From an uncultured Candidatus Saccharibacteria bacterium (GTDB lineage: Bacteria > Patescibacteriota > Minisyncoccia > Phycocordibacterales > UBA9973): a DNA stretch of 55,453 nt. The notes under the pieces are model-generated. The model was given only the letters and a program-made list of their open reading frames with translations, was not told the origin of the DNA and did no database searches. Where the stretch lies: contig CAZRDO010000006.1 in assembly GCA_964599225.1 (NCBI GenBank), positions 1 to 55,453 on the forward strand. Reading direction: 5' to 3'. A program made the position numbers and the translations under genes. Of the stretch, positions 14,482 through 43,785 are shown one piece after another. How positions within the stretch are numbered: the stretch's first letter is position 1; every line of letters begins with the position of its first letter.

Positions 14482-14778
14482 TTACTGAACGTTTGAAGTA
14501 CTGTCGAAGTCTACACTATTGAGATCTGACTCGATACCTGAAAGGTCGTCTGACGAAGAATCGAGCTCGGCTGAGATGTCACTATCACTTCCACCTTCCA
14601 TGTCAGTAGTTGCGGTGCCGTTCGTATTTGTTGGGGCAACCACAGTGCTACTTTTTTGACTCAGTACAAGTGCAATGATAATGATAAGAATAATAACGAC
14701 TGCGATAATGATTCCTCCTTTACCTTTCTTTTCTGGCATAGTGTTCATTGAAGGATTTGTGTTGTTCATTGGTTCCAT
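14482..14778 (-). CDS. Small single-pass membrane protein with an acidic S/D-rich tail
   Basis: TM GGIIIAVVIILIIIIALVL, then TNTNGTATTDMEGGSDSDISAELDSSSDD. Confidence 0.5.
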   Translation of the reverse strand: MEPMNNTNPSMNTMPEKKGKGGIIIAVVIILIIIIALVLSQKSSTVVAPTNTNGTATTDMEGGSDSDISAELDSSSDDLSGIESDLNSVDFDSTSNVQ

Positions 14779-17634: not shown

Positions 17635-18954
17635 TCAATGTTGAACAATGAAAACCTTGTTTAGAACTGCGCCATCAAATGATACACGAGCGAAGTACTG
17701 ACCCGCTGGAAACTTAGTTTCGATGAGAGAGTTTGTGACTCCTTCAGAAACGATTTTACCCAACAAGTCGTAAATCACTACATGTCCATTTGCCGGACCT
17801 TTGATCTCAATGTGATCATTGGCAGGATTTGGGAACAGATTTATTTCAAAGCTACCTGAACTCGGCTCATTTGTACCAGTAAACTCTGGTATGTCAGTCC
17901 CAAAGACAATGATCTGTGTAAACGGAGATGGTTCAGTTTGTGTTAGAAATCCAGACACAACTGTCCATTTTCCGTTCACTTCTGTCTCGATGGCATATCC
18001 TATTCCGGAGGAATAAGAAGCGAAAGGATCCATCCAGGTATCTCCATCATACTGAGCAACGAGTGGGCCAACCTCAACATTATCGATGCCAAAAAACATA
18101 CCGGTAACATAAAGATTTTCACCATGAACGCTCATCTGGTCTACTCCAGGACAATCATCACCGTGAGTGAAGCTTGTCCAGTTCTCCGAAGTCGGAGAAA
18201 GGGTGACCAGTTCGGTATGAACACCATTGTCAGGGATAGTGGCGACTCCACCTAGAAGCATTAATTTCCCATTATACCAATCCAAGTCGGTCATGTAGAA
18301 GAGCTTCGTCACGTAACCCATATTCATCTCTGTTTTTTCACCCAATGTTCCATCAGCGGCAATTTTGTAAAGCCTCGACTCATAGTTCATAAATGATGTG
18401 CCTGTACGTTCGTTTACATAGAACGAGCCATCCATTGACGTATGGTTGAAACTTACGCATTGTGCGATGTGTCCAGAGTCTGCTTGAAACCAATTGGTTG
18501 CATTGGACTCATTCATGATCAAAGTGCCTTCATCAGTTGAGATCACAATTTTGTTAAAAATCGTATCAACGTCGTTTATCTTTGACGTTATCCCAAAATA
18601 TGAATCTGGAATCCAATCGGATGAAGGTGAGCCTAGATCATATGTGTAAAGGTATGGAGCCTTCTGAACCGACGCGAATAAAATATTTTCGATCCAGGGG
18701 ACAAAAAACAGATTATTGATAGTGTCGGGTAAGCCACTACCTAGTGAGAAAACCTCACCAGTAGCAATATTTGTTCCAGCGACATGAGGATACGGTGAAT
18801 CAAATTCACCACCTACAATTACAGTGTCACCTTTAAAAATCACAAGAGAGGTTACTCTCTTGTTGGCCTGAAGGGTGATGGTTTTTGTCTTTTGGGCAAT
18901 TGCCAGAAAAGAAAAAACCAACAAAAAAATGCTTAAAAATACAAGGTTTTTCAT
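17635..18954 (-). CDS. Secreted protein with a T9SS (Por) type C-terminal sorting domain
   Basis: Signal MKNLVFLSIFLLVFSFLAIAQ. The C-terminus INLFPNPANDHIEIKG...VVIYDLLGKIV...GQYFARV...KVFIVQH matches the Por secretion C-terminal sorting pattern. Confidence 0.7.
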   Translation of the reverse strand: MKNLVFLSIFLLVFSFLAIAQKTKTITLQANKRVTSLVIFKGDTVIVGGEFDSPYPHVAGTNIATGEVFSLGSGLPDTINNLFFVPWIENILFASVQKAPYLYTYDLGSPSSDWIPDSYFGITSKINDVDTIFNKIVISTDEGTLIMNESNATNWFQADSGHIAQCVSFNHTSMDGSFYVNERTGTSFMNYESRLYKIAADGTLGEKTEMNMGYVTKLFYMTDLDWYNGKLMLLGGVATIPDNGVHTELVTLSPTSENWTSFTHGDDCPGVDQMSVHGENLYVTGMFFGIDNVEVGPLVAQYDGDTWMDPFASYSSGIGYAIETEVNGKWTVVSGFLTQTEPSPFTQIIVFGTDIPEFTGTNEPSSGSFEINLFPNPANDHIEIKGPANGHVVIYDLLGKIVSEGVTNSLIETKFPAGQYFARVSFDGAVLNKVFIVQH

Positions 18955-19079
18955 GTTCTGTCAATTTTTCTGAGTTCATTATACCACTTTGCCATTTCTT
19001 TACAAGGGTTTTCCACAGATCTGGAAAAATGGAATTAGGCAATGTTTTTCAATACAGAGTATAATGAGTAGCAATATAT

Positions 19080-19400
19080 ATGATTGAAAATAACTCTACT
19101 AATACTACAGTCTATTCTAAGGCGCACTCCAGTAATGGAAAAAAGATTTTGGTCGTGATACTTCTTCTTATCATTCTCGGGGCGATAGTGTATTTCCTTA
19201 AAACTCCAAAAGAGAATGAACTTTCAGAAGAAGAGAAGATGAGAATACTTGAAGAGCTCTCAACTCAACATACTGGTCCTGATCTAACAAACGAAGAAAA
19301 ACAGATAATCCTTGAAAATATCGGAACGCAATCAACAGGCCCTTCGCTTACTGAGGAAGAGAAAATTGAGATACTAAATAATTTAGATAATTCAAAATAA
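19080..19400 (+). CDS. Small single-pass membrane protein with three 21-aa tandem repeats
   Basis: TM ILVVILLLIILGAIVYFL. Repeats L[ST]xEEKxxILExxxTQxTGPx have a 63-nt period starting at 19221, 19284 and 19347. Confidence 0.55.
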   Translation: MIENNSTNTTVYSKAHSSNGKKILVVILLLIILGAIVYFLKTPKENELSEEEKMRILEELSTQHTGPDLTNEEKQIILENIGTQSTGPSLTEEEKIEILNNLDNSK

Positions 19401-19402
19401 AC

Positions 19403-20851
19403 ATGAATAGAAAGCAAAAGTTGCTCATTGGGTCTACAGCACTTTTTCTCATGAGTGCATTTTCACTGTTTTTCATCCACACGGTAATACTAAAGGCCGA
19501 TACCTCTTCGAATAAGGTCACTGGCTATGCGTGGGCAGGTGATACTATTGGTTATATTTTTATGAACTGTTTGAGTCAAACATATGATGACGGTACCTTA
19601 GAGGGCGGAGGTGGTGAAACAGGTTTCAATACTAAAATTCAAAAGAAGTTTGCTTTCCGTAATCTATTCGTCAACATTGCGCATGCTGATAGTGCGATGT
19701 GTACACATAGTAATTACGGAGTTTCGGTAAATATGACTACGTTTGAACTCTCTGGTTTTGCTTGGGCACCTCATGTTGGCTGGGTTCAATTTGGTGGCCT
19801 CTCAGGATTTCCTACGACTGGTGAAGCGACAACAAACGCAAATGCAAAATTCGTACTTCAATCTGACGGCAACTACAAACTTACTGGCTGGGCAAAAGTG
19901 CTCTCAGGCGATCAAGTAAATGATGGTTGGGATGGCTGGATAAGTTTCGATGGAGAAGTTAAACCAGGAACCCAGGAAGAAAATCCTGGCTCAGAGAAAT
20001 CAACTGGCGGAGACAGAACATTTAACTTTAATCCATTTAGTGCCAAAAAAGTATTTGCAAAAGAGGCAACTTACCAGATTATTATTGATGTGTATGGGAA
20101 AGTGGATCCCTCTGGTAATGGTAGTCGCTATGGATGGGCAGGAGGACAGCAAGGAGATGTTATTGGCTGGGTAGATTTTTCACAAGTAGTTTTCCCTCAG
20201 ATGCCAAGTGGTCCAATTATTACACTGACTGCTACACCAAGTTCAGTTGCATATAGCACCACTGCACCAAAAGTGAAGCTTTCTTGGATTGGTCAAAATG
20301 GCACATTCACGACTTGTAAACCACTTGATGGAGTGAATACTTCAGATGCTTCAAAAGTCAGTAACTGGCCTACTCTTACGCTCCCAGTATTTGATATGAG
20401 CAATCAAAATAATAATTCTAAGGCAGGTGTAACTGTGCCCGGAATTCCTGGTACAACCGTGCAGTATAATATCGAATGTCTCGATACGATCTCCGGTACA
20501 TGGACCCAGGCAATTCAAACAGCACTTGTGACGATTACAGGACCAAGTGATTCATTTACACTTGCGCCGTCCTGTATCACTGAAGCAAATGTCGCGCTCG
20601 GTAATAACGAAGTGACACTGAACTGGAGTTCATCAGGAACTTCAAGTTGTTCGATCACTAACTACAGTGGAAGTGTCAGCGCGCCTGGGTCTGGATCGGG
20701 AACCCAGGATGTTACACAAAGTACTACCTTTACACTCAAATGTACGGGTAATAGTGGAGAAGCGCTTACGCCAATAAGTCATACGGTCAGTGTGGCACCG
20801 CTTTGTACATCAGCTGGCACTCCTACCATCCCAATTATCAAAGAACATTAA
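19403..20851 (+). CDS. Module A-like surface protein: G[YF]AW...GW[IV]xF repeats followed by Ig-like domains
   Basis: TGYAWAGDTIGYIFMNC, SGFAWAPHVGWVQFGG, DGWDGWISFDG, RYGWAGG..GDVIGWVDFS. Then two domains with an L-x-W...C...T-x-(F/Y)-T-L-x-C pattern. Confidence 0.65.
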   Translation: MNRKQKLLIGSTALFLMSAFSLFFIHTVILKADTSSNKVTGYAWAGDTIGYIFMNCLSQTYDDGTLEGGGGETGFNTKIQKKFAFRNLFVNIAHADSAMCTHSNYGVSVNMTTFELSGFAWAPHVGWVQFGGLSGFPTTGEATTNANAKFVLQSDGNYKLTGWAKVLSGDQVNDGWDGWISFDGEVKPGTQEENPGSEKSTGGDRTFNFNPFSAKKVFAKEATYQIIIDVYGKVDPSGNGSRYGWAGGQQGDVIGWVDFSQVVFPQMPSGPIITLTATPSSVAYSTTAPKVKLSWIGQNGTFTTCKPLDGVNTSDASKVSNWPTLTLPVFDMSNQNNNSKAGVTVPGIPGTTVQYNIECLDTISGTWTQAIQTALVTITGPSDSFTLAPSCITEANVALGNNEVTLNWSSSGTSSCSITNYSGSVSAPGSGSGTQDVTQSTTFTLKCTGNSGEALTPISHTVSVAPLCTSAGTPTIPIIKEH

Positions 20852-20911
20852 TAGTAATTGCATCGGATTGATTCCCGCGCTAAACTGTACTTATCAATTA
20901 ACAAACAACGT

Positions 20912-22171
20912 ATGATTTCAAGAGACATGATACAAAAAATAAAAGGCATCTTACTAGGACTTATTTTAGTGCTGGGAATTTCAGTTGCAGTGGCGAGTTG
21001 GAATCCGCCATCTGGAACTCCGTCGGCGGCAAACAATGAACAGGCCCCTGTTAACGTTGGCTCTGTAACACAAGATAAGAACGGAACCCTCGGAGTAACA
21101 CATATTAGTGGTTGGGATACGGCTCGTTTTTACGGTGATGTTTATCTTGGCAACACGATGGAGTCACAAGGGCCAGTCTCATACTCTCCAGTAATAATTG
21201 CAAGCTTAAGTAATGCTGGATCAGGAGTTTTTGATGACGATAAACCGGTGTGTGCAGATGCAGAAGGCGTATTAAAAATATGTGGCTCAATCGTCCCTCC
21301 ACCACAAACACCAACCGTAAATCTTACAGTTGATCAGCCAACAGTTACTACATCTGAAGTCACTTCAATATCACAAAGTGTAGAACTCGCCTGGACAACG
21401 AACGATCTCGTGGGCGCAACCTGTACAGGTACACAGAATAATGGAGCTTCAGGATTTACTACGAATCCTTCATATGCCGGTGGTACCGATAGTGCGACTG
21501 TGGAGAAATTTGGAATCACAACATTTACTATCACTTGTACGCCAACCTCTGGTTCACCGGTTAGTGATACTGCTACAGTTACTGCAACAGGCTTGAAGAC
21601 TTTTGTTTCTGGTACTTCAACCTTTACTCCAAGTAGTTCAGAATTTAATAGTGGCACTTCGTATACTGTACAAGCTGTAGGAGGTGGCGGAGGTGGAGTG
21701 ACATATGGTGGAGTAACAGGAGATTATGAAGGTACTAATGGTGGTAGTGGTACACAAACAACAGTTACGTACAATAGCTCGACAATTCTTACAGCAGCCC
21801 CTGGTGGCGGAGCGTCATTCACCACTTCGAGTGCGCCAACAGTAGGTGGGCTTGTTGCAAAAAATGGTACAGCTGGTGCTGGATCGACAGGCACAGCTCC
21901 TCTCTATAGTTTCGGAACCTACTTAAGTAATCAAACCTGTGGTAGTGGAGGTCCTACAACTGTTATGTATGGTGCAGGAGGCTCATCAGGCTGTAACTAC
22001 AACACTAATAAAAAAGGTGGTGCAGGAGGCTCACAAACCACAACCTCAGTATGGGCAACAGGTCTTGGCTACACGTTCTCCTTTGGTTCTGGTGGTACCG
22101 GTCCAAACAATACTACTGGTGGTGGCCAAGCACAAAATGGAGGAAACGGAGCAGTTCGATTCATCTGGTAA
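20912..22171 (+). CDS. Module B-like N-terminally anchored fibre protein with an Ig-like domain and a C-terminal glycine-rich (tail-fibre-type) domain
   Basis: TM GILLGLILVLGISVAV, then SWNPPSGTPSAANNEQAPVNVG. C-terminus ...YTVQAVGGGGGGVTYGG...GGNGAVRFIW resembles the phage-fibre glycine-rich domain. Confidence 0.6.
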   Translation: MISRDMIQKIKGILLGLILVLGISVAVASWNPPSGTPSAANNEQAPVNVGSVTQDKNGTLGVTHISGWDTARFYGDVYLGNTMESQGPVSYSPVIIASLSNAGSGVFDDDKPVCADAEGVLKICGSIVPPPQTPTVNLTVDQPTVTTSEVTSISQSVELAWTTNDLVGATCTGTQNNGASGFTTNPSYAGGTDSATVEKFGITTFTITCTPTSGSPVSDTATVTATGLKTFVSGTSTFTPSSSEFNSGTSYTVQAVGGGGGGVTYGGVTGDYEGTNGGSGTQTTVTYNSSTILTAAPGGGASFTTSSAPTVGGLVAKNGTAGAGSTGTAPLYSFGTYLSNQTCGSGGPTTVMYGAGGSSGCNYNTNKKGGAGGSQTTTSVWATGLGYTFSFGSGGTGPNNTTGGGQAQNGGNGAVRFIW

Positions 22172-22187
22172 TCATCAAATAGAAAAT

Positions 22188-22215
22188 AAAAATCACTCCC
22201 TAAGGAGTGATTTTT
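22188..22215 (+). terminator. Intrinsic terminator
   Basis: aaaaatcactcc-ctaa-ggagtgattttt. Confidence 0.8.
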
Positions 22216-22264
22216 ATTTTCACACAGTGTAAATGTTTTTCTCTGGTATACTTAGTGGAAAGAA

Positions 22265-24019
22265 ATGCAAATTAAAAAAGATCAATTAAAAAAATTCATT
22301 ATTGAGTCAAGTCTTGTTGCGAAAAAAGATATTGATGAAGCGGAAGCGCTCGCGATCCAAAAAGGAACAGACATCGGAGACGAGTTAGTAGGGCTTGGTA
22401 AGCTCAAACATAGTGATCTCAAACGCATCCAAGCCTATGTAGTAGGTATTCCCTTCATCTCACTTATTGGTGAGAAAATTGATCCGAGCATTCTCTCGCT
22501 TATTCCAGAACCAATTGCCAGGAACTATAATATTATTGCGTATAAAAAACACGGCGATGAACTTGAGGCGGCCATGCTTGATTTTGATGATTTGCCACGA
22601 CTAGATTTTATTCGGAAAAAAGTTGGTTTAAAAATTCTTCCGCGCCTTACTGACACTGCTTCAATTAAAGTCGGACTCGCTCAATATAAACAGAGTCTCA
22701 AAGCTGATTTTGATGCGATTCTACAGAAAGAAACCGAGTCACTGAAAACTATCGCTGAGGCAGCAGGTGATGAACCTAAGACTGAAAAGGAATTGAAGGA
22801 AATGGCTGAGGATATTCCAGTCGTTAAGATTGTTGATACGCTTATATCTCACGCAATTTTACAAAACGCTTCCGATATTCACATTGAACCACAAGAAGAA
22901 TCACTCGTTGTGCGCTATCGCATTGACGGCATCCTTCATGACGCGATGATTCTGCCCAAAGAAACGTCAGCTGGAATTATTGCCCGCATCAAAGTCCTCT
23001 CAAATCTCAAACTCGATGAGAAGCGTCTGCCGCAAGATGGTCGCTTCAAAATCAACAATGAAGAACAGCGTGTTTCATTTCGTGTTTCGACACTGCCGAC
23101 CTACTATGGTGAGAAAACTGTGATTAGAATTCTTAGAGAAAATGCCAAGGGTTATTCTCTTGAGGGTCTTGGATTCCATGGCGATGGTCTTGAGCGTATT
23201 CATGATTCACTCAAATTAAAAACTGGCATGATTCTCGCAACAGGTCCAACTGGTTCTGGTAAAACGACGACGCTCTACACTGTGCTTGATATTTTAAATA
23301 CACCAGACGTAAATATTTCGACTGTTGAAGATCCAATTGAATATCAGATGCCACGAATCAATCAAACACAAGTGAAATCTGAGATTGGACTGACATTTGC
23401 TAATGGTCTTCGTACACTTTTGCGTCAAGACCCTGACATCATCATGGTTGGTGAGATTCGAGACGAGGAAACTGTTGACCTAGCTATTAATGCCTCTCTC
23501 ACTGGACACCTTGTGCTCTCAACGATCCATACTAATTCTGCGGCTGGAGCAATTCCACGCATGATGGATATGGGTGCAGAAGCATTTCTCATTATTTCAA
23601 CAATTAGAACTATTATTGCGCAACGTCTCGTGCGCAAACTCTGTCATGCACGAGAACAATATACGATGGAAGAAGCAGAATTTAATGCACTCGCAAAAAT
23701 TGCTGATATGGATCATGTGCTCGATGCACTGAAGGCAGAAAAAATAGTTGAGAAAAATGCGACGTGGAAAACCATACCGTTTTATAAACCAATACCAGGA
23801 GAGGATTGCGAAGATGGATATAGTGGGCGAATTGGTATTCACGAAGTACTCACAGTTTCAAGCACCATCAAGGAACTCATCCTGAAAGGCTCAAGTGAAG
23901 ATGTGATTGCAGCCCAAGCACGAAAAGAAGGAATGCTTACGATGGTCGAAGATGGTATTTTCCAGGCCGCACAAGGACTTACAACAACAGCTGAAGTTCT
24001 GAGAGTTGTTTCAGAATAG
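22265..24019 (+). CDS. pilB: Type IV pilus assembly ATPase (GspE/PilB family)
   Basis: N-terminal GSPII_E_N-like domain, Walker A GPTGSGKTTT, Asp box, Walker B IIMVGEIRD and His box LVLSTIHTN. Confidence 0.9.
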   Translation: MQIKKDQLKKFIIESSLVAKKDIDEAEALAIQKGTDIGDELVGLGKLKHSDLKRIQAYVVGIPFISLIGEKIDPSILSLIPEPIARNYNIIAYKKHGDELEAAMLDFDDLPRLDFIRKKVGLKILPRLTDTASIKVGLAQYKQSLKADFDAILQKETESLKTIAEAAGDEPKTEKELKEMAEDIPVVKIVDTLISHAILQNASDIHIEPQEESLVVRYRIDGILHDAMILPKETSAGIIARIKVLSNLKLDEKRLPQDGRFKINNEEQRVSFRVSTLPTYYGEKTVIRILRENAKGYSLEGLGFHGDGLERIHDSLKLKTGMILATGPTGSGKTTTLYTVLDILNTPDVNISTVEDPIEYQMPRINQTQVKSEIGLTFANGLRTLLRQDPDIIMVGEIRDEETVDLAINASLTGHLVLSTIHTNSAAGAIPRMMDMGAEAFLIISTIRTIIAQRLVRKLCHAREQYTMEEAEFNALAKIADMDHVLDALKAEKIVEKNATWKTIPFYKPIPGEDCEDGYSGRIGIHEVLTVSSTIKELILKGSSEDVIAAQARKEGMLTMVEDGIFQAAQGLTTTAEVLRVVSE

Positions 24020-24047
24020 TCCATCCCCATAATGTAATGTTATAAAT

Positions 24048-25268
24048 ATGCAATTTACATACACTGCTACAAATAAGGTTGGCGAGAAGACAAAAGGAGC
24101 TATTGAGGCGTCGGATCGATTTGATGCAGCACATCAATTGCGTGCACAAGGATTGGTGCCGAGTACACTTACCGAACATCGTACAAAAAATAAAGAAGTA
24201 AACATACCACTACTGTCTCCGCTCCTCAACCACATTGGACTTCAAGAGAAAATTGTTTTTACCAGAAACCTTGCCGGCATGCTGACTGCTGGTCTCCCGC
24301 TCTCTCGAGCGCTCGGCGTACTGGAAAGGCAAACCCGTAATGTAATTTTCAAAAAAGTACTCAAGTCAATCGAAGATTCAATCAACAGTGGCGGTACGCT
24401 TTCGGACGGACTTTCGCTTCATAAAGAACATTTCTCCACATTATTTGTATCTATGGTCCGCGCTGGTGAAGAGTCGGGGACGCTCGCGAAGTCACTTTTA
24501 GAAGTGGGGCGGAATATTGAGAAAATTTATTCACTTCGCAGAAAAGTGAAAGGCGCGATGACGTACCCACTGATTATCGTCTTTGCAATTTTTTTGGTTG
24601 GAACTTTAATGCTGATCTTTGTGGTGCCAACGTTGACCGAGACCTTTGTTGGACTCGGCGTGAAACTTCCAAAGACCACACAATTTATTATTTTTATTAG
24701 TGATCTCGTTTCCAAACATACTCTTGTATTTTTTGGTACAGTCTTCGCACTGGTCATAGGGGTAGTGGCCGTGTCTCGTATCAAGGCGACTAAGAAATAT
24801 GTTGATACATTTATGCTTCATATTCCCGTCATTAAAAATATTGTGAAGGAGTTAAATACGGCGCGCACTGCACGGACAGTTGCTTCACTTCTCGCATCCG
24901 GCGTTGATATTACTCGAGCGCTTGAAATTACTAGAGATGTTCTTCAGAATGATCGGTACAAGAGTGTTATAGATGAAACCATTATTGCTGTACAAAAAGG
25001 TGTGCCCATCTCGACAGTCATCGAACGCTATCCCAATCTCTACGCACCAATGATGACTGAGATGGTGGAAGTGGGAGAAGAGACAGGGCAACTGGCGAGT
25101 ATTTTAACCAATGTTGCAGAATTTTATGAGGAAGAAGTCGATAATAAAACAAAAAGTCTCTCAACCATTATTGAACCGGTGTTGATGATTTTTGTTGGAG
25201 CCGCAGTCGGATTTTTTGCAGTTTCGATGATTACACCACTTTATTCGATTCTCAATACTATTGATTAA
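24048..25268 (+). CDS. pilC: Type IV pilus platform protein (GspF/PilC family)
   Basis: Two GspF repeats (FTRNLAGMLTAGLPLSRAL; TARTVASLLASGVDITRAL) and three TM segments. Confidence 0.9.
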   Translation: MQFTYTATNKVGEKTKGAIEASDRFDAAHQLRAQGLVPSTLTEHRTKNKEVNIPLLSPLLNHIGLQEKIVFTRNLAGMLTAGLPLSRALGVLERQTRNVIFKKVLKSIEDSINSGGTLSDGLSLHKEHFSTLFVSMVRAGEESGTLAKSLLEVGRNIEKIYSLRRKVKGAMTYPLIIVFAIFLVGTLMLIFVVPTLTETFVGLGVKLPKTTQFIIFISDLVSKHTLVFFGTVFALVIGVVAVSRIKATKKYVDTFMLHIPVIKNIVKELNTARTARTVASLLASGVDITRALEITRDVLQNDRYKSVIDETIIAVQKGVPISTVIERYPNLYAPMMTEMVEVGEETGQLASILTNVAEFYEEEVDNKTKSLSTIIEPVLMIFVGAAVGFFAVSMITPLYSILNTID

Positions 25269-25269
25269 C

Positions 25270-25728
25270 ATGAAAAAGACCGCAGGACTCTCTCTTATAG
25301 AACTGGTGATTACGGTCGCGCTCATTGGAGCACTGTCTGCAATTGTTGCAGTTTCATTTCACCAATTCCAACGTCAGCAAATTCAAAAGTCGACTGTCGA
25401 TACCATTATCTCAATGCTTGATAGTGCTCGAGCCAATACACTCTCTGCTCGGAATCTCTCACAGTTTGGTGTGCATTTCTCTTCCTCTGCCGTCGTATCA
25501 TTTGAAGGAGGAAGTTATGTGAGTGGTGCAGCTGGAAATGCTACCTATACACTTGATACTCGTGCAACACTCGGATCAATTTCACTCAATGGTGGAGGTA
25601 CAGATGTTATTTTTTCTCGCCTTACAGGGGACACTAACAATTATGGTACACTCAATGTCATAGTTACTGGTCTTTCTCCAAATAAAACTCTTACCATCAG
25701 TGGGACAGGAATTGTAAGTAGTAATTAA
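25270..25728 (+). CDS. Prepilin-type protein, GspH/FimT-like minor pilin
   Basis: MKKTAG|LSLIELVITVALIGALSAIV is a class III signal with Glu5. DSARANTLSAR follows the GspH-like pattern. Confidence 0.75.
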   Translation: MKKTAGLSLIELVITVALIGALSAIVAVSFHQFQRQQIQKSTVDTIISMLDSARANTLSARNLSQFGVHFSSSAVVSFEGGSYVSGAAGNATYTLDTRATLGSISLNGGGTDVIFSRLTGDTNNYGTLNVIVTGLSPNKTLTISGTGIVSSN

Positions 25729-25733
25729 CAAAT

Positions 25734-26249
25734 ATGTCTTCTCGATCTTTTACAGCATCATTTCAAAATACGAGAAAGTCCTTGTTGGCCAAGGGAACTT
25801 TTTTGATTGAAGTCGTTATTGTGGTTTCCATTATCACACTGATGCTTCTTGCTACGATGCAAATTACTGCACTCTCAACACGTATTAGTCGTCGCGCACT
25901 TGCCGAAACACAGGTTGCGTTTCTTGCCGAAGAGGGCGCCGATGTCGTGCGTCTCGTCCGTGATGCTGGTTGGGGCGCATTTACAGCGCTTTCAACTTCA
26001 ACCCCGTACTATCTCGTCCACGGGACGGGTGGGTGGACGTTGACGACCAGTCCTACAATAATCGATTCAGTATTTACTCGCACAGTGGTCTTTGAGACAG
26101 TAAATCGTGATAGTAATGATGATATTGTGACCAGTGGAGGTACGATCGATAGTGGTACACGAAAAATTACAATTACTATTTCTTGGAATGATGGAGCAGA
26201 GACGGTGACAAAAACATTAGCATTCTATTTAACTGATATCATAAGTTAG
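25734..26249 (+). CDS. Prepilin-type minor pilin with a long leader
   Basis: ...LLAKG|TFLIEVVIVVSIITLMLL is a cleavage/methylation-type N-terminus. Confidence 0.65.
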   Translation: MSSRSFTASFQNTRKSLLAKGTFLIEVVIVVSIITLMLLATMQITALSTRISRRALAETQVAFLAEEGADVVRLVRDAGWGAFTALSTSTPYYLVHGTGGWTLTTSPTIIDSVFTRTVVFETVNRDSNDDIVTSGGTIDSGTRKITITISWNDGAETVTKTLAFYLTDIIS

Positions 26250-26252
26250 CGT

Positions 26253-26768
26253 ATGAAACGAACTCAAGGCGGTTACGCACTCTTGGAAATGCTCGTCTAT
26301 ATTGTAGTGCTTTCACTTGTCGCGAATGTGACGGTGAATGCACTTATTATTATGACTCGCTCATTTAATGAGAGTCGAGCAAACCGAGACCTCGCTTCTA
26401 GTGGCACTTCAGCAATGGAGCGTCTAGGACGAGAAATCAGATCAGGAGTGAGTATCGATGGGGCTGGCAGCACATTTATTACATCTCCAGGCGTACTTAA
26501 ACTCAATACACTGGATGAAAATAATATCGCGCACACTATTACCTTCACGGTTTCCGGTTCGCCAGCCCAACTTATGCTTACTCGTGACGGCACATCTGTG
26601 GGAGCGCTGACAACAGTGCATGTGGCAGTCCAGAGCTTTATTGTGAGACAGATGGCTGTGGGAACTGAGAGTGCAGTGAAAGTTGAACTGACACTTCAGG
26701 CGGTGCGTGCCAAAGGAGGCAAGAGTGCAAATTTTTATAACACAGTAATATTACGAGGAACATATTAA
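26253..26768 (+). CDS. Prepilin-type minor pilin
   Basis: MKRTQGG|YALLEMLVYIVVLSLV. Confidence 0.65.
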   Translation: MKRTQGGYALLEMLVYIVVLSLVANVTVNALIIMTRSFNESRANRDLASSGTSAMERLGREIRSGVSIDGAGSTFITSPGVLKLNTLDENNIAHTITFTVSGSPAQLMLTRDGTSVGALTTVHVAVQSFIVRQMAVGTESAVKVELTLQAVRAKGGKSANFYNTVILRGTY

Positions 26769-26844
26769 AGTAGACCAGATGAAAAACGAAAAGATTAAAA
26801 TTATATTTTTATATTCTCGATCATTTTGTGAGTATGGTAATTCA

Positions 26845-28611
26845 ATGCATGAATCACGAGGTCAGGCGCTACTTATTTTCTTAGTATTTTTCCTCTTCAC
26901 ATCGCTCGCACTCATTTTTGGTCTTGTAACTCCTTCAACCGGAGCGTTTCAAAGCGCACAGGAGACAGTACGTTCTCGCCAGAGCTATCTCTTAGCTGAA
27001 TCTGGTGTTGAAGATGTTGTCTATCGACTTCGAAATAATAAAAGTGTTTCGTCTTCAGAAACACTGACACTCAACACAACTTCTGCAACCACAACGCTCA
27101 CTGATCTTGGAAGTGGGCAAAAGCAAGTCGTCTCGCTTGGAAATGTTTCCGGACGACAGCGCACAGTAAAGGTCAAAGTGGTTACAGGAAGTGGTATTTC
27201 ATTTAACTATGGTATTCAAGCTGGACAAGGAGGACTTGATTTAGATGGTAGCTCAGGAATTGTGGGCAATGTCTACTCTATGGGCCCTATAACCGGATGT
27301 TCAACTTGCTATATTACTGGTTCAGCAATTTCAGCCAATAGTACAGCACTCTCTGCTGATCAGACAAACGGCACGAGTGGTACGCCACCGAACACGATTG
27401 TATTTGGAAACGCGTCAGGTACTCAAGACCTCGCGCAGAGTTTCAAGCTCACGGCTGAGAATCCAATAAATAAAGTACAATTCTATATCAAAAAAATCGG
27501 TGCACCTTCTGACGTAACGGTGCGTATTGCTACAGACAATAGTGGAAGTCCAAGTACGACATATCTTGCTTCCGGTACTCTTTCGGCATCTCTGGTTACT
27601 ACGTCTTATGGTTGGATTAATGTAGTCTTTACTACGAACCCAACACTTGAAGCGAATACTACGTACTGGCTTGTTCTTGACGCATCCACCTCGTCGACGA
27701 AATATTATACGATTGGTTCAAACACAATATACACGAATGGTGCTGCAAAGATCGGACAAGTTGGTGGCACATGGAACAGCACGACCCCTTCAGGACTTGA
27801 TGAATATTTCCAATTTTATTTAGGAGGGCTTACTGGTTCGATTAGTGGTGAAAGTCAGTGGAATCAACTTCCTATCGGTACTGTCTCAGGATTGGCTCAA
27901 GCTCATACGGTCAATTATGTAAATGTTTCTGGTGCACTTAATTGCCAGAGCGGCACAGGGAACAATAAAGCATGTAATAACACGCTTCCAGACCCTACCC
28001 CACAGCCACTTCCTATTTCTGAGGCGAATATTGTCGAGTGGCAGTCCGATGCGGCCGCAGGCGGTACCTATACCGGATCTTGTACTATAGGCGGGACAAC
28101 ACAGGTTTCAATAGGATCAAAGAAAATTGTTTGTAATACTTTTCAAATTACTAATTCAGCCGTCGTCACAGTAACAGGGCCATTATGGATTACAGGAAAC
28201 ATCATCATTGATGGTGCAGGTATACTTAAGCTTGCAAGCTCATATGGGGCTTCGAGTGAAGCAGTGATCGCTGATGGAAAGATCACAATTGGCGGAAGTT
28301 CTCCAGTTAATGGTTCAGGTACGACAGGGAGTTATATTCTCATGCTTTCAAATTCAGATTGTCCGACAACCTCAACCTGTGGTACTTCAAATGCGATTGA
28401 TATTTCAGGCTCCGCAGGTGCAGTAGTGCTCTATGCTGCAAATGGGACGATTAAGTTCTCGGGAAGCGCGAGTGCGAAGGAAGCAACGGGGTATAGAATC
28501 ACACTTCAAGGAACGACCAGTGTGGCTTATCAGAGTGGTTTGATCAATCCGAACTTTACGAGTGGCCCTTCGGGAACCTATGCCATTCAGTCTTGGCAGG
28601 AAACGCAATAA
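26845..28611 (+). CDS. Large (589 aa) pilin-like protein, candidate pilus tip or adhesin subunit
   Basis: MHESRG|QALLIFLVFFLFTSLALIFGL is PilX-like and lacks Glu5. A long S/T/G-rich beta-type region follows. ATG at 26845 preferred over 26779. Confidence 0.6.
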   Translation: MHESRGQALLIFLVFFLFTSLALIFGLVTPSTGAFQSAQETVRSRQSYLLAESGVEDVVYRLRNNKSVSSSETLTLNTTSATTTLTDLGSGQKQVVSLGNVSGRQRTVKVKVVTGSGISFNYGIQAGQGGLDLDGSSGIVGNVYSMGPITGCSTCYITGSAISANSTALSADQTNGTSGTPPNTIVFGNASGTQDLAQSFKLTAENPINKVQFYIKKIGAPSDVTVRIATDNSGSPSTTYLASGTLSASLVTTSYGWINVVFTTNPTLEANTTYWLVLDASTSSTKYYTIGSNTIYTNGAAKIGQVGGTWNSTTPSGLDEYFQFYLGGLTGSISGESQWNQLPIGTVSGLAQAHTVNYVNVSGALNCQSGTGNNKACNNTLPDPTPQPLPISEANIVEWQSDAAAGGTYTGSCTIGGTTQVSIGSKKIVCNTFQITNSAVVTVTGPLWITGNIIIDGAGILKLASSYGASSEAVIADGKITIGGSSPVNGSGTTGSYILMLSNSDCPTTSTCGTSNAIDISGSAGAVVLYAANGTIKFSGSASAKEATGYRITLQGTTSVAYQSGLINPNFTSGPSGTYAIQSWQETQ

Positions 28612-31224: not shown

Positions 31225-32832
31225 TTACTGAACCATGATTTTTGCTGTGCACATTTCGCCATCAGCCATAAAGGACTCAAGAAGATACGTGCCTGGAGAA
31301 AGATCATTTTTACTTAACGTAAGTGATCCCTCCTCGATAAATCCAGTTGCGACAGCTTTACCAGTCATGTCCATTAACACGAAGTGTGTTGGTAAGATTC
31401 CACTAAACTGTACTTTGGTGCAGCTAATCATAGGATTCGGGTAGACACTAACAGTGCCCGATCCATTATTAGCAGTGACAATTTCATCATTTGTTCCGAA
31501 CCCGTCTACCAGCTTCATAATCCAGATATCGCTTTCACCCTTGTTTTCAGGTATGTCGCCACCGACTTCTCCCGAGTGTCCTACAGCAATAAATGCACCA
31601 TATTCCCATGGTATTGGACTTATTGCAGTAATCCCATCATTACCTGGACCACCAAAAGTTTTTTTCCATAAAAGATTGGAAGAACTTTCTTCTGAAGTTT
31701 TTCTTATAATCCAGGCATCTGATCCGCCGTGGTTATTACTTACCTCTATGTCATTTGACCAGGTAAGTCCTGCTGCAATAAAATCGTTTGAGTCGCCACC
31801 TGCTTGGGACATTGTCGTGAGACTGTCATTCATTGTCCCTCCGTTTGAATATTGCCACCACAGACTTCCTTGATTGTCAGTTTGTGTAGTAAGAAAATCT
31901 CCTTCCCCCAAATTACCACCATATCCATCAGGTGAATGGCCTGTGCCTCCAAGCTGATATTTGCTGTTAACTTGTACAATAGCGTTGAAGCTTTCGTTTG
32001 CAGTACCTCCCCAACATGAGAGTATGCTTATCTCACCGTTTGAAGTGCTAACATCAACACTGAGACCATCATATCCTCCGTTGTTGTAGCTCCACTCTTC
32101 AATGTTGCCTGAAGAAGATTTTGTTTTACCTACAGCAGTATATTTTGTCGGATCTTCATTGGAAACCATAATTTTGGTGAAACAATCGTCATCTTCTCCT
32201 CCATAGGTCTTTGACCATATAATTTCAAGATTTTCATCCAAAACAAAAATCCAGCCATCCTGACTTCCATAACTTGGTGCATTTACATCACCATCAGTCG
32301 AAGTTGTGGCTCCTGCTATGACAATATAGGTGCCATTGAGTAGGACGCTATAGGCCACATCATCTCCACTTCCACCAAAACATTTTTTACTGACGATTCC
32401 TCCATTTAAGTCATTAAACACAACGAGCCAAACGTCTCTTCCTCCATGGTTTCCGTTCACCTGCCCATCTGTCGAGGCCGTTGGTCCAATAGCCAGATAA
32501 TTGTCACCATAAGGGATAACGGCCATGAATCCTTCGTTTGAAGTACCGCCATAATTTTTCTCCCATTCAATGATCATCTCAGGACTGAGTTTTACGACCC
32601 AGCCATCATTTCCTCCTTTGTTATTTGAAACATCACCATCTCCCGATGCTGATTGTCCGCCAATAATTACAGAGCCGTCAGAATTTAAAACAAAGTCAAA
32701 AGCCTGATCTTTATCGGATCCACCGATTGATTTTTGCTGTTGAATGTTTGGTTGTGCCATCACTGGCACAGAAAACAGTACTGCGAGGCAAGACATGCTT
32801 ACCGCGACAGCAATAAAGAACATTTTTTTCAT
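31225..32832 (-). CDS. Secreted beta-propeller-repeat protein with a T9SS-type C-terminal sorting domain
   Basis: Signal MKKMFFIAVAVSMSCLAVLFSVPVMAQ. Repeated units GG..D...DG...GxTxSxDGDV..N(H/K)GG.D.W have an SBBP-like pattern. C-terminus VSVYPNPM...FVLMDMTGKAV...GTYLLE...KIMVQ. Confidence 0.7.
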   Translation of the reverse strand: MKKMFFIAVAVSMSCLAVLFSVPVMAQPNIQQQKSIGGSDKDQAFDFVLNSDGSVIIGGQSASGDGDVSNNKGGNDGWVVKLSPEMIIEWEKNYGGTSNEGFMAVIPYGDNYLAIGPTASTDGQVNGNHGGRDVWLVVFNDLNGGIVSKKCFGGSGDDVAYSVLLNGTYIVIAGATTSTDGDVNAPSYGSQDGWIFVLDENLEIIWSKTYGGEDDDCFTKIMVSNEDPTKYTAVGKTKSSSGNIEEWSYNNGGYDGLSVDVSTSNGEISILSCWGGTANESFNAIVQVNSKYQLGGTGHSPDGYGGNLGEGDFLTTQTDNQGSLWWQYSNGGTMNDSLTTMSQAGGDSNDFIAAGLTWSNDIEVSNNHGGSDAWIIRKTSEESSSNLLWKKTFGGPGNDGITAISPIPWEYGAFIAVGHSGEVGGDIPENKGESDIWIMKLVDGFGTNDEIVTANNGSGTVSVYPNPMISCTKVQFSGILPTHFVLMDMTGKAVATGFIEEGSLTLSKNDLSPGTYLLESFMADGEMCTAKIMVQ

Positions 32833-32984
32833 TTCAAAAAACAGTTTTTTATGTGAATAGCTATTTCCGGCCTTTGGTCTACCCATCGTGCACGAAAACA
32901 GTCTGGTTGATTTATACATTAGTCTTACCATGAAGTCAAATACATCTATTTGACAAATAATTTGTATATGATAATACTCGGCTT

Positions 32985-34706
32985 ATGAAAATCACATTTT
33001 TTGGGGGCCTCCTGGCAACATTAGTACTCACATTAGTTTGTATTAGTCCAAATATTGCTTCGGCAGATGATGAAAGTCTTCTTCCTTGTACCATTACCTC
33101 ATTTAAAGCGGTGCCGGCTTCAATTACTTCTGGTGCATCCTCATCTCTCAAATGGGTTACACAGAACTGTATAACCAATTTGATAACTCAAGATTCTAAT
33201 CCTGTGATCTCATCAGCGCTTCCCTCCGGCTCAGTTTCTACCGGACTTCTTACTTCTACCAAAACCTATCTCCTCACCGCAGTTGGTGACACAAATAGTG
33301 CAACTGCGTATGCTACCGTCACTGTGGGCACAATCCCAGCATGTAGCATTACTACCTTTACTGCGAACCCTTCATCAATTCAATACAATACTACGTCTAC
33401 ACTTTCATGGACCACAAATAATTGTACATCTGTGTCTATTTCACCGACTATTGGTACTGTTCCGGTTAATGGTTCTGTGTCTACAGGCAATCTTACGCAA
33501 ACTACTATTTTCACACTCAATGCCGTTAGCGGTAGTAATGCTGCTATAGCGAGTAAGACTATTACGGTTATCCCGGCGCCACAGTGCACGATCACATTAT
33601 TTAATGCCACTCCACAAAATATCATTGCTGGGCAATCTACACTGCTTAATTGGAAGACGACGAATTGTAATACCGGATCAATCAATCAAGGCATCGGGTC
33701 AATCACATCAACTATTACTCAGGGTTCAGTATCAACTGGAGTACTTATGAGTACGAAAACATATAAATTGACCGCCGAAGGTATTGCCAATACTGCATCA
33801 GCGCAAACAACAGTCTCGGTTGCGCTTTCATGTGTACCAAATAGCTGGACTCAGAAAGCAGATTTCGGTGGCACAGCGCGTTATGATGCAATAACTTTTG
33901 TTATCAGTAGTAAGGGGTACCTAGGAACAGGTTCTGAAGGTTACAATGAATACCAGAAAGACTTCTGGGAATATGATCCAGTTACAAACACCTGGACGCA
34001 GAAGGCAGATTTTGCAGGCCTTGCGCGAGACAGTGCTGTAAGTTTTACTATCAATAATAAAGCATACGTAGGCACAGGAAATGGATTAAATGGAGTCTCC
34101 TACAAAGATTTCTGGGAATACAATCCTACCTCAAACACCTGGACTCAGAAAGCAGATTTCGGTGGCACAGCGCGTAGTGGTGCAGTGGGTTTCTCGATAA
34201 ACAATAAAGGATATGTAGGAACAGGAACTGGTGGTGCAGGTCAAAAAGATTTCTGGGAATACAATCCTACCTCAAACACCTGGACTCAGAAAGCAGATTT
34301 CGGTGGCACAGGAAGATACGAAGCGATTGGGTTTGCTATCGGCAGTAAGGGGTATCTAGGAACAGGATTTGGTGGTGGATTTAAAAAAGATTTCTGGGAA
34401 TACAATCCAACTTCAAACATCTGGACCCAGAAAGCCGACTTTGGGGGCACAGCACGCTATCATCCCGTTGCATTTACTTTAAATTCCAAAGGATACGTAG
34501 GAACTGGTCATGATGTGACCACTCCATACTTAAAAGACTTCTGGGAATACAATCCATCCACAAATGCCTGGACTCAAAAGGCAGATTTTGGGGGAACAGG
34601 ACGACACTTTGCAAAAGGTTTTGCAGTGAATGGAAAAGGATATATTGGAATTGGAGAAGATTCTAACTGGATCAATACTAAAGACTTCTGGGAATACTGC
34701 CCGTAA
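32985..34706 (+). CDS. Secreted protein: three Ig-like domains plus a six-blade Kelch-like beta-propeller
   Basis: Three copies of C-x-I-T-x-F-x-A-x-P...L-x-W-x-T-x-N-C. Six copies of WTQKADFGGTxR...KGY(L/V)GTG...KDFWEY(N/D)P. Confidence 0.75.
   Translation: MKITFFGGLLATLVLTLVCISPNIASADDESLLPCTITSFKAVPASITSGASSSLKWVTQNCITNLITQDSNPVISSALPSGSVSTGLLTSTKTYLLTAVGDTNSATAYATVTVGTIPACSITTFTANPSSIQYNTTSTLSWTTNNCTSVSISPTIGTVPVNGSVSTGNLTQTTIFTLNAVSGSNAAIASKTITVIPAPQCTITLFNATPQNIIAGQSTLLNWKTTNCNTGSINQGIGSITSTITQGSVSTGVLMSTKTYKLTAEGIANTASAQTTVSVALSCVPNSWTQKADFGGTARYDAITFVISSKGYLGTGSEGYNEYQKDFWEYDPVTNTWTQKADFAGLARDSAVSFTINNKAYVGTGNGLNGVSYKDFWEYNPTSNTWTQKADFGGTARSGAVGFSINNKGYVGTGTGGAGQKDFWEYNPTSNTWTQKADFGGTGRYEAIGFAIGSKGYLGTGFGGGFKKDFWEYNPTSNIWTQKADFGGTARYHPVAFTLNSKGYVGTGHDVTTPYLKDFWEYNPSTNAWTQKADFGGTGRHFAKGFAVNGKGYIGIGEDSNWINTKDFWEYCP
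34104..34320 (+). repeat. Near-identical 141-bp tandem duplication inside the Kelch-like gene
   Basis: aaagatttctgggaatacaatcctacctcaaacacctggactcagaaagcagatttcggtggcacag occurs at 34104 and again at 34245. Confidence 0.85.
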
Positions 34707-34716
34707 TTAATTTTTT

Positions 34717-35079
34717 ATGAACACCATACACAAAATAATTCTCATCATCATTTTTCTTGCAGTCATTGTCGGAGGAGCTTTGTATCTTGATTCAAATAAA
34801 AAGAATCCATCAGCTGGCGAAGCAAACCCGTATGCAGATTCTCTCGTTGAAGCTAAGCTCTATCAAAACGAGGACGAGACTTGGGGTTACGACATCATGA
34901 TCGATGGCAATATCTATGTCCATCAACCGACCAAGCCTGCGGTCGGTGGCAATACTGGCTTTGCAACTGAAGTCGAAGCGCAGAGTGTCGCCGATCTCGT
35001 GATTTCAAAAATCAAAAATAATATTTTACCTCCCTCAATCACCCCAAGTGAAGTCACTGAGCTAGAAGAAAAAGAATAG
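34717..35079 (+). CDS. Small membrane-anchored protein resembling DUF4907
   Basis: TM IILIIIFLAVIVGGALYL. The motif WGYDIMIDGNIYVHQPTKPAVGGNTGFATEVEAQSVADLVISKIKNN recalls DUF4907, a family I remember as often lying next to Kelch proteins in Bacteroidota. Confidence 0.55.
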   Translation: MNTIHKIILIIIFLAVIVGGALYLDSNKKNPSAGEANPYADSLVEAKLYQNEDETWGYDIMIDGNIYVHQPTKPAVGGNTGFATEVEAQSVADLVISKIKNNILPPSITPSEVTELEEKE

Positions 35080-43170: not shown

Positions 43171-43785
43171 ATGGATATTCTCGATTCAATTATATACGTC
43201 GCCATACTCATTTTCTCAGTCGCATTACATGAAATTGCTCATGGCTATGCGGCGTTGCACGAAGGTGACGATACTGCCCTTCGGGCAGGCAGATTGACAC
43301 TCAATCCGGTTGCACATCTAGATATTTTTGGTTCAATTATTTTACCCTTTCTCCTCATAGTTTCTCATACTGGATTTGTGTTTGGCTGGGCCAAGCCGGT
43401 GCCGTATAACGAAGCGCGATTACGAAATCGTCGCAGTAGCACACTCCTCGTTGCAGGAGCAGGTATAATTGCAAACTTAATTATTGTGCTCATATTTTCG
43501 ATTTTTATACGCATGAGCATGGCGTTCGGTATTGGAGTCTCGCTTCTGCCAGTATTTAGCAGCATAGTACTACTGAACATTGTGTTGGCAGTGTTTAACC
43601 TCGTACCCCTACCGCCACTCGATGGATCTAAAATTCTTTTTGCACTTTTGCCAGAACGTTTCAGAAGCTTTGAGTTTACGCTGTTGCGTTACAGTTTCGT
43701 ATTTGTTGTTATTTTTATATTTTTCCTTTGGAAATTCATTGCACCAGTCGTCAGTATTCTATTCAATCTTTTTGTCGGTTCATAA
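43171..43785 (+). CDS. Site-2 protease (M50) family membrane metalloprotease
   Basis: HEIAHG zinc motif, LNPVAHLDIFGS, NLVPLPPLDG and multiple TM segments. Confidence 0.8.
   Translation: MDILDSIIYVAILIFSVALHEIAHGYAALHEGDDTALRAGRLTLNPVAHLDIFGSIILPFLLIVSHTGFVFGWAKPVPYNEARLRNRRSSTLLVAGAGIIANLIIVLIFSIFIRMSMAFGIGVSLLPVFSSIVLLNIVLAVFNLVPLPPLDGSKILFALLPERFRSFEFTLLRYSFVFVVIFIFFLWKFIAPVVSILFNLFVGS

Follow-up and report, generated by a model that had tools for sequence, protein, structure and literature searches.

A candidate surface fibre/adhesin gene module beside the type IV pilus operon of an uncultured Patescibacteria bacterium

Introduction

Type IV pili are implicated in host recognition and attachment in a few Saccharibacteria, but in other ultrasmall Patescibacteria these processes are largely unexplained. 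The locus described here raises the question of whether secreted proteins encoded beside a type IV pilus operon could take part in that process. The DNA analyzed is a stretch of 55,453 nucleotides from an uncultured Candidatus Saccharibacteria bacterium (contig CAZRDO010000006.1 of assembly GCA_964599225.1), the whole of which is referred to as the window. The element in question is a trio of co-oriented open reading frames (ORFs) on the forward strand at 19080-22171, between a divergent Por_Secre_tail gene and the pilus gene pilB. The trio encodes a small membrane protein, a protein with a repeat domain termed the GW domain, and a secreted protein that begins with a short conserved motif, termed the N-motif.

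An initial annotation had described the last two genes as a third, diverged copy of a gene pair present twice elsewhere in the window (A1/B1 and A2/B2), and had suggested a functional connection to pilus-mediated surface biology. The reading preferred here, to which a probability of roughly 0.45 is given, is that the trio is one transcription unit encoding a Patescibacteria cell-surface fibre/adhesin docking module, analogous to the mosaic adhesive trimeric (MAT) fibres of Bdellovibrio bacteriovorus.

Results

The GW-domain protein belongs to a very large family

Translation of the second gene (19403-20851, + strand) gave a protein of 482 residues. Its hydrophobic N-terminus (aa 1-32) with an LKA|D site is a predicted signal or transmembrane (TM) segment, where the protein may be exported and cleaved. 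A motif scan located four G[YF]AW..GW[IV]xF hairpin units at approximately aa 41, 118, 161-183 and 243-260, which make up the GW domain (aa 35-263, nt 19505-20191) together with two lineage-specific insertions (aa 66-96 and 195-211). AlphaFold2 and Foldseek assigned Ig/Fn3-like domains to approximately aa 270-470, confidently so for 380-470 (nt 20540-20812). The mean pLDDT of the model was 71, with values of 85-95 in the GW core and the last Ig domain, and both insertions were disordered. Foldseek matched the C-terminal part to Fn3 and SoxYZ Ig folds with a probability of 0.99-1.0, bearing out the earlier statement that the protein ends in Ig-like domains. The full-length model gave only Ig-like matches, in this same part, and one match of low TM-score to a beta-propeller+PKD structure.

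A phmmer search with the 482-residue protein returned 88 proteins, with E values to family members of 1e-16 to 1e-4. Nearly all of these have a signal peptide, a four-hairpin domain of ~135 aa and variable, mostly Ig-like C-terminal parts, and the named members are Patescibacteria. The alignment showed the family units GYAWSxNIGWISF, GYAWS..GWIQFGGLSGFP, GWA....GWDGWISL and YAWGxxVVGWVDF, with invariant glycine and tryptophan residues. The alignment of the window protein covers all four units, and its only departure from the invariant columns is a tryptophan to tyrosine replacement in unit 1; as judged from this alignment the protein is a diverged family member, marked by that replacement and by the two insertions.

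A profile of the domain matched 9,115 representatives of 50%-identity clusters at E<=1e-3, and 6,730 at 1e-10, in proteins of very varied architecture with up to 21 units. In one-genome-per-species data at least 588 matches were confirmed. The best 80 of these at least 588 loci are the species loci of the counts given below, in which the denominators for pilB, the N-motif gene and NusA are the numbers of loci with the required flank. Of these 80, 79 are labelled Patescibacteria-type or, unspecifically, bacterium, and one (L047) is labelled Patiriisocius, a genus of Flavobacteriaceae. The L047 contig (JBLHQB010000009.1), binned into a metagenome-assembled genome (MAG) of Patiriisocius sp., carries a typical Patescibacteria GW/N-motif module; its label is probably due to bin contamination, and possibly reflects the physical association of an episymbiont with its host. 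The GW domain had no match in Pfam, in NCBIfam or in a PDB sequence search, and full-text literature searches yielded no paper that describes the module, its GW domain or its N-motif.

The third protein combines a constant N-terminus with a variable distal part

The third gene (+ strand) encodes 414 residues from an ATG at 20927 to 22171, with alternative starts at 20912 and 20858. The 20927 start is the one used in public gene calls, and the 20912 start is also kept in close homologues. The predicted signal peptide (aa 1-23), a hydrophobic stretch with an AxA site, is followed by the N-motif (aa 25-55, nt 20999-21091; W..P...P...N...P[IV]N...Q.K.G) and by a linker, which was modelled with low confidence and contains a conserved Cys109/Cys119 pair. 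Next come an Ig-like domain (aa 130-226, nt 21314-21604), assigned by AlphaFold2 and by Foldseek matches to Ig folds in the PDB, and a glycine-rich beta domain (aa 230-414, nt 21614-22168), which AlphaFold2 modelled confidently and which was compared by Foldseek with BFVD.

Close or remote homologues of this protein number only 14, and a PDB sequence search found no relatives. Its N-terminus is common to proteins that are encoded beside GW genes elsewhere. The shared pattern consists of a signal peptide ending in AxA, an invariant tryptophan, and then W-x-x-P...P...N...P[IVL]N...Q-x-K-x-G. Residues W25, P28, P41, N43, Q49, K51 and G53 are invariant in two alignments, of 49 and of 33 N-motif sequences, and the window protein has all seven; hhalign of its N-terminus with two N-motif proteins of locus L035 gave a probability of 95-96%. 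In the 49 relatives AxA closes the hydrophobic stretch and the invariant tryptophan comes directly next, which is the pattern of a cleaved Sec signal peptide. Because the AxA|W junction is consistent across N-motif proteins, the stretch looks like a signal peptide cleaved before the tryptophan rather than a membrane anchor, and the initial description of the protein as N-terminally anchored in the manner of B1 and B2 is doubtful.

Beyond the N-motif, the remainder of the 49 proteins is mutually unrelated. Pfam placed a C-terminal Peptidase_S74 domain in 14 of the 49, Gly_rich_2 and Collagen domains in two each, and Fibrinogen_C, H_lectin and Hint domains in one each. A Shufflon_N-type fibre motif occurs in one protein, and the other single-member matches were Flg_new_2, TSP1_ADAMTS, Cu-binding_MopE, Hom_end_hint, PT-HINT and Vint, the last three of which are Hint-type. 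To judge from the sequences, a constant N-motif joined to unrelated tips matches the design of receptor-binding proteins whose attachment end stays constant.

At some loci one GW gene is followed by a tandem array of N-motif genes (L044:11048-13288, L047:9044-15485, L064:11236-15125 and L035:7069-13548). The arrays hold two or three such genes with near-identical N-termini and differing tips (one Hint intein-like, one fibrinogen-like, some collagen-like), and they are reminiscent of polymorphic or cassette-type adhesin repertoires.

The glycine-rich domain had been likened to domains found at the tips of phage fibres. The likeness was upheld at the level of the fold: the best BFVD match was to an uncharacterised phage protein (E=6.9e-9, with modest to low TM-scores among the matches), and phage proteins named 'glycine-rich domain' and 'tail fiber' followed at E ~1e-3. 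It did not extend to sequence, where no Pfam or PHROG model matched at E<=0.1 and tblastn found no match in 50,697 phage genomes. A link to PF21722 (Gly_rich_2) was considered and not established. The window protein is unmatched by this model and its remote family member P0102 gave a weak match below the cut-off (E=0.005); the two N-motif proteins that do match (7e-17) have glycine-rich parts that do not align with the window family.

The possibility was considered that the locus is the remnant of a prophage tail-fibre module. Besides the phage-like fold of the tip, the S74, tail-collar-like and collagen-like fibre domains of the relatives would agree with such an origin. However, there are no other phage genes nearby, many Patescibacteria lineages keep the chromosomal synteny with NusA and TIM-PGK, the base composition of the window is uniform, and the searches of PHROG and of the phage genomes were negative. 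In view of the conserved synteny, the lack of phage genes and the lack of a phage-genome match, a prophage remnant is essentially excluded.

A small membrane protein adjoins the GW gene

The first gene of the trio (19080-19400, + strand; 106 aa by translation) ends with a stop codon 2 nt before the start of the GW gene. The protein is single-pass, with a TM helix at aa 23-40 (nt 19146-19199) and three 21-aa repeats of the form L(S/T)xEEKxxILxxL...TGPx at aa 48-106 (nt 19221-19397); neither Pfam nor NCBIfam has a family that it matched. Homologous proteins, 78-126 aa long and built alike, are encoded next to GW genes in distant lineages (L001, L002, L005, L007, L008 and L009). Among the species loci, a small TM-repeat gene abuts the GW gene in 36 of 64, lying upstream in 18 and downstream in 18.

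On iteration, the hidden Markov model (HMM) of the small protein also came to collect a second small TM family, whose minus-strand matches were excluded from these counts. This second single-pass family, represented in the window at 14482-14778 (- strand), has conserved MEPEKKSNGALVGLVVIII...DLNxLExDL repeats. Its minus-strand homologues lie near the trigger-factor gene in many loci, syntenic with trigger factor/NusA, and the family may be distantly related to the small protein of the trio.

The module is conserved, and its two large proteins co-vary

The order small protein, GW protein, N-motif protein, pilB, pilC is kept in all four orthologous loci examined (L001, L002, L008 and L009), where the identity of the third protein of the trio is 47-79%. 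L009 retains the order from the trio to pilC despite a rearranged NusA side, and the trio or a pair is present across L001-L009 in diverse contexts. An N-motif gene lies within 1.5 kb of the GW gene on the same strand in 24 of 52 species loci, and NusA is divergent upstream of the GW gene in 22 of 60. The gene order of the window agrees with that of many Patescibacteria (Paceibacteria/Parcubacteria-type) MAGs, and the locus is present in DNA metagenomes of freshwater and wastewater.

The distances between GW domains were correlated with those between the adjacent N-motifs (Mantel r=0.32, p=5e-4, 41 loci), and the correlation persisted when NusA distances were controlled for (partial r=0.36, p=2e-4, 21 loci). 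This co-variation fits a unit that co-evolves or is transferred together.

These data also bear on a different view of the locus, namely that the GW domain is a ligand- or wall-binding hairpin repeat and that the genes encode independent surface adhesins or wall-anchored proteins in a 'surface-protein island' of variable content, bounded by NusA and the pil genes. The aromatic-rich hairpins, and their occurrence in 9,115 clusters of varied architecture with up to 21 units, would be in keeping with it, as would the membrane-distal position of the GW domain in A1 and A2. Moreover, the content of the NusA-pilB interval differs between lineages and includes large secreted proteins, Por_Secre_tail proteins and TSP1-repeat proteins. 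However, the CW_binding_1 and Listeria GW Pfam profiles had no match at E<=0.1 to the window GW proteins or to the typical member P0046. This view also leaves unexplained how N-motif proteins, which have no other anchor, remain on the cell, why a small TM gene so often abuts the GW gene (36/64), and why the GW and N-motif proteins co-vary. We consider it unlikely.

The module is positionally associated with the pilus operon

The type IV pilus operon (22265-28611) lies on the same strand as the trio. It comprises pilB (22265-24019; NCBIfam PilB, E=6.8e-154), pilC (24048-25268; GspF/PilC, E=5e-95), three prepilin genes (25261-25728, 25734-26249 and 26253-26768) with N_methyl motifs and G|xxxxE leaders read from the translations, and a gene for a pilin-like protein of 610 aa with the leader G|QALLI (26779-28611). 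In the species loci pilB is found on the same strand within 6 kb downstream of the GW gene in 15 of 50, and in six of these at 49-87 bp. Because the loci were ranked by similarity to a pil-linked GW protein, this 30% describes one subfamily rather than all GW genes. The chance of pilB adjacency was estimated at <1% for genomes of ~1 Mb. The positional association of module and pilus genes is real, and the linkage to pilus loci in related genomes, whose absence would by the initial annotation's own criterion have refuted it, is present in the four orthologous loci as well as in the 15 of 50, which speaks in its favour. As a caveat, the profile of the GW domain matches more than 9,000 clusters in many architectures.

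The association is not universal. The module is tied to NusA on its upstream side (22/60) no less than to pilB, and approximately half of the GW loci have no nearby pil gene. In L003, L016, L070 and L082 the pil operon is absent and the module still lies between NusA and TIM-PGK, and modules are also found in unrelated contexts, for example beside SecDF or a TrwB/DUF87 ATPase.

Two large pilin-like proteins are candidate pilus tip adhesins, namely the 610-aa protein of the window and a modular pilin of 600 aa encoded at L008:13369-15171, which has the leader G|MTLIE and CarboxypepD_reg-like domains. A homology between the membrane/CarboxypepD_reg half of A1 and A2 and the CarboxypepD_reg-containing protein in the pil operon of L008/L009 was considered and rejected, as the latter is a large modular pilin and the two show no similarity.

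If the GW and N-motif proteins were themselves accessory or tip components of the pilus, loaded like PilY1 or R64 PilV, their tip would be shown at the end of a retractable filament. Two known cases count in favour of this explanation, PilY1 as a Sec-exported protein that is not a pilin and R64 PilV as an example of fibre-like domains carried by a pilus. So do the conserved same-strand placement 5' of pilB (15/50, six at 49-87 bp, and 4/4 orthologous loci) and the Shufflon_N/PilV-type fibre motif in one N-motif relative. However, a prepilin G|(F/M)xxxE leader is found in the operon's own pilins but in neither of these proteins; the leader G|(F/M/L)xxxE with its hydrophobic helix is absent from all three trio proteins and present in the ORFs starting at 25261, 25734 and 26253. 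The operon, moreover, already has its 610-aa candidate tip protein. The occurrence of the module at the NusA-TIM/PGK site of loci that lack a pil operon, or beside a TrwB/DUF87 ATPase in unrelated surroundings, also argues against a pilus component, as do the transcription signals described below, and we regard this explanation as unlikely.

The trio and pilB appear to be separate transcription units

A terminator had been proposed between the trio and pilB, and this was corroborated. A perfect palindrome with an 18-bp stem, a 4-nt loop and T/A runs on both sides (22182-22221) constitutes a predicted bidirectional intrinsic terminator at the end of the trio, and RNAfold gave -28.5 kcal/mol for the intergenic region; pilB starts at 22265, 94 nt after the preceding stop. 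Between the terminator and pilB an extended -10-like box, TGgTATACT (22244-22252, + strand), was read from the sequence and may serve as a promoter element. Relatives have boxes GCTATAAT, GCTATACT or GATATAAT at the equivalent place 5' of pilB. A strong hairpin terminator followed by a TATAAT-like -10 box separates module and pilB in 11 of the 13 related loci examined, and the two are therefore taken to be separate transcription units. Upstream of the trio a consensus scan found a promoter-like site, TAGGCA-18-TATAAT (19036-19065, + strand; 10/12 matches). Such sites were no more numerous than expected by chance, so this one is weak evidence.

The T-run of the terminator meets the TATAAT-like box almost directly, a few nucleotides 5' of pilB (22182-22252 in the window), so that pilB would have a very short leader. 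This compact terminator-promoter junction is conserved across lineages (L001, L008, L009, L012, L017, L018, L022, L024 and L030).

The proposed connection to the pili is supported as a conserved positional association; co-expression with the pilus genes or a physical link to the pilus is a conjecture.

GW proteins share a C-terminal tail

The C-terminus of the GW protein (nt 20813-20848) ends in ...PTIPIIKEH, in which P-I-I-K-E-H is the window version of a P-x-Φ-x-E-Φ tail. Nearly every member of the GW family terminates in this motif. In the loci, a P-x-[FYI]-x-E-[FYI]-COOH tail is found in 45 of 78 GW proteins vs. 10 of 572 other long ORFs, and the 10 other carriers are large secreted proteins of the same neighbourhoods (e.g. 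L003:4437-7973, L005:5608-7434 and L010:3573-7124). The glutamate at position -2, E481 in the window protein, is at least 90% conserved in the family. The tail is not followed by a transmembrane segment and is unstructured in the AlphaFold2 model. It could represent a novel tag for sorting or docking.

It was therefore considered whether the proteins could be cargo of a secretion or sorting route that reads this tail, possibly with the pilus-like machinery acting as a type II-like piston or with another sorter, in which case the cluster would be an island of substrates. The distribution of the tail (45/78 vs. 10/572, the 10 being large secreted proteins of the same loci; also L003_1178 and L005_608), the conserved glutamate and the lack of predicted structure are consistent with such a route. 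However, N-motif proteins do not have the tail, no candidate sorting enzyme was identified nearby, and the tail could be a mere terminal beta-strand or a protein-protein docking peptide. The substrates of type II secretion are not known to carry a linear signal. This explanation is quite improbable.

Relation to the A1/B1 and A2/B2 pairs

The peptides quoted in the initial annotation were all present in the translations. The GW protein of the trio shares its repeats with A2 (BLASTP E=1e-6) and A1 (1e-3), as had been noted, and the similarity is confined to the repeats. A motif scan found three GW units each in A1 (43728-45713) and A2 (48067-50184), in which the GW domain is membrane-distal and fused to a transmembrane part of its own, and an S74 fibre gene follows each. 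A search for relatives of A2 in metagenome contigs gave matches through acidic Cys repeats only.

The proposed homology of the third trio protein to B1 and B2 was not sustained. BLASTP showed no similarity (E>=0.2) and hhalign of their N-termini with the N-motif gave a probability of 2-5%. Peptidase_S74 (PF13884), a C-terminal intramolecular chaperone domain (SDxxxK), is found in B1 (E=1.7e-7) and B2 (E=5.4e-12) and is absent from the 20912-22171 product at E<=0.1 with Pfam and PHROG. B1 and B2, for their part, do not have the N-motif and are S74 fibres with a different N-terminus. The same order thus recurs three times in the window in architecture only, in that a gene for a fibre-like secreted protein comes after each GW gene; homology of the second gene does not extend across all three.

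Other genes of the region

Por_Secre_tail, the C-terminal sorting domain of type IX secretion, was found in the products of 17635-18954 (- strand, E=6.5e-7) and 31225-32931 (- strand, E=4.8e-5), and one such gene is conserved divergently upstream of the trio in L001, L002, L008 and L009. The type IX system is a Bacteroidota system, which makes this domain odd in a Patescibacteria genome; the proteins may be host-derived or the domain may have been put to another use. The product of 34717-35079 has DUF4907, which is typical of Bacteroidota. The gene at 32985-34706 (+ strand) encodes a secreted protein with three Ig/PKD-like repeats and then a Kelch beta-propeller (Kelch Pfam matches down to E=4.5e-23), and its product is probably another surface protein of the region.

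Discussion

Export, cleavage and docking of the trio proteins, together with their surface location, host binding and cooperation with the pilus, are what we infer from the sequences. The small bitopic protein would be a membrane tether or scaffold. The GW protein would be exported by the Sec pathway and would display its Trp-rich four-hairpin beta domain on Ig-like spacers, with the conserved tail at its C-terminus. A need of the GW domain for membrane tethering would fit its fusion to a transmembrane part in A1 and A2. The third protein would be exported and cleaved right before the invariant tryptophan, exposing a conserved peptide of ~30 aa by which it would dock to the cell, with the GW domain as the likeliest site. 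The variable distal part could then bind a ligand on the host cell. Here it would consist of the Ig-like domain and the phage-fibre-tip-like glycine-rich domain; in relatives its place would be taken by an S74 trimeric fibre, a collagen, fibrinogen-like or H-lectin domain, or a similar one. The module adjoins the pilus operon and is probably transcribed separately, and the two may serve the same process, the attachment of an episymbiont to its host. A1/B1 and A2/B2 would follow the same logic with different parts, their GW domain carrying its own membrane region.

Several observations weigh against the docking module. The GW domain has no sequence or structural relative of known function, and for this reason a docking platform and a ligand-binding lectin are inseparable. 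The N-motif region of the window protein was predicted with low confidence in the AlphaFold2 monomer. Half of the GW loci have no adjacent N-motif gene, and L006/L074, L019 and L067 have no partner of the module at all. The Mantel signal could have arisen because neighbouring genes are inherited or transferred together, and not through physical contact. The manner in which the 80 loci were ranked biases the counts to one GW subfamily. Finally, among the sequencing runs searched, the locus was found in no RNA run.

A bolder interpretation would see in the module a phylum-wide host-recognition apparatus, in which a membrane-tethered GW platform holds interchangeable receptor-binding proteins by a universal Trp-led docking peptide, as the cellular counterpart of a phage baseplate-fibre adaptor. 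Its position at the pilus locus would then mean that retraction and fibre binding together set which hosts can be colonised, and the P-x-Φ-x-E-Φ tail would serve the apparatus as a novel signal for sorting or docking. We hold this interpretation to be unlikely.

The GW and N-motif families are genetically coupled and frequently located at the pilus locus. Should they form a host-binding apparatus, host range in uncultured lineages could be predicted directly from the variable tips, and the pairing of the conserved N-motif with the GW domain would offer a simple protein-protein interaction to test. Otherwise, both families, which are very large and have no annotation, would still merit a domain definition.

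The docking module can be compared with several known systems. Like phage receptor-binding or tail-fibre S74 proteins, of the type of B1 and B2, N-motif proteins have a constant attachment end and exchangeable tips, and 14 of the 49 relatives end in Peptidase_S74. In contrast, the window protein lacks the S74 domain, resembles neither B1, B2 nor any phage genome in sequence, carries a signal peptide and is chromosomally encoded. Type IV pilus tip adhesins (PilY1, the R64 PilV shufflon adhesin and modular pilins) resemble the module in their location beside pilus biogenesis genes and in their adhesin-like distal domains, and a PilV-type motif occurs in one relative. The trio differs in having no prepilin leader, no PilY1/PilC-type Pfam match at E<=0.1 and, it appears, a separate transcript. 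Choline-binding CW_binding_1 proteins and Listeria GW proteins are likewise secreted surface proteins with short aromatic-rich beta-hairpin repeats. However, there is no detectable sequence relationship, and the domain described here is a fixed four-unit domain of ~135 aa with the linkers GGLSGFP and GWDGWISL.

The closest likeness in kind is to the MAT fibres of B. bacteriovorus, whose N-terminal module is conserved and whose tips vary, with or without S74 (Caulton et al. 2024, PMC10769870). The surface anchor of these fibres is not known, and a possible interplay between them and type IV pili has been raised (PMC10769870). In both cases the proteins are secreted by a bacterium that lives on other bacteria, a conserved module directly follows the signal peptide, the tips are highly variable with S74-terminated and other members, and the anchor of the conserved end is open. 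The differences, as far as they emerge from the published description, are that the constant part of a MAT fibre is a beta-rich domain of ~130 aa, whereas here it is a proline-rich peptide of ~30 aa that begins at the invariant tryptophan. Furthermore, dedicated GW and small TM partner genes are co-located here and are undescribed for MAT fibres, and MAT fibres belong to a diderm predator whereas Patescibacteria are monoderm-like. Fibre adhesins with a constant base and a variable tip, in bacteria that live on bacteria, are thus an already known kind of system, of which the components and dedicated partner genes described here are new.

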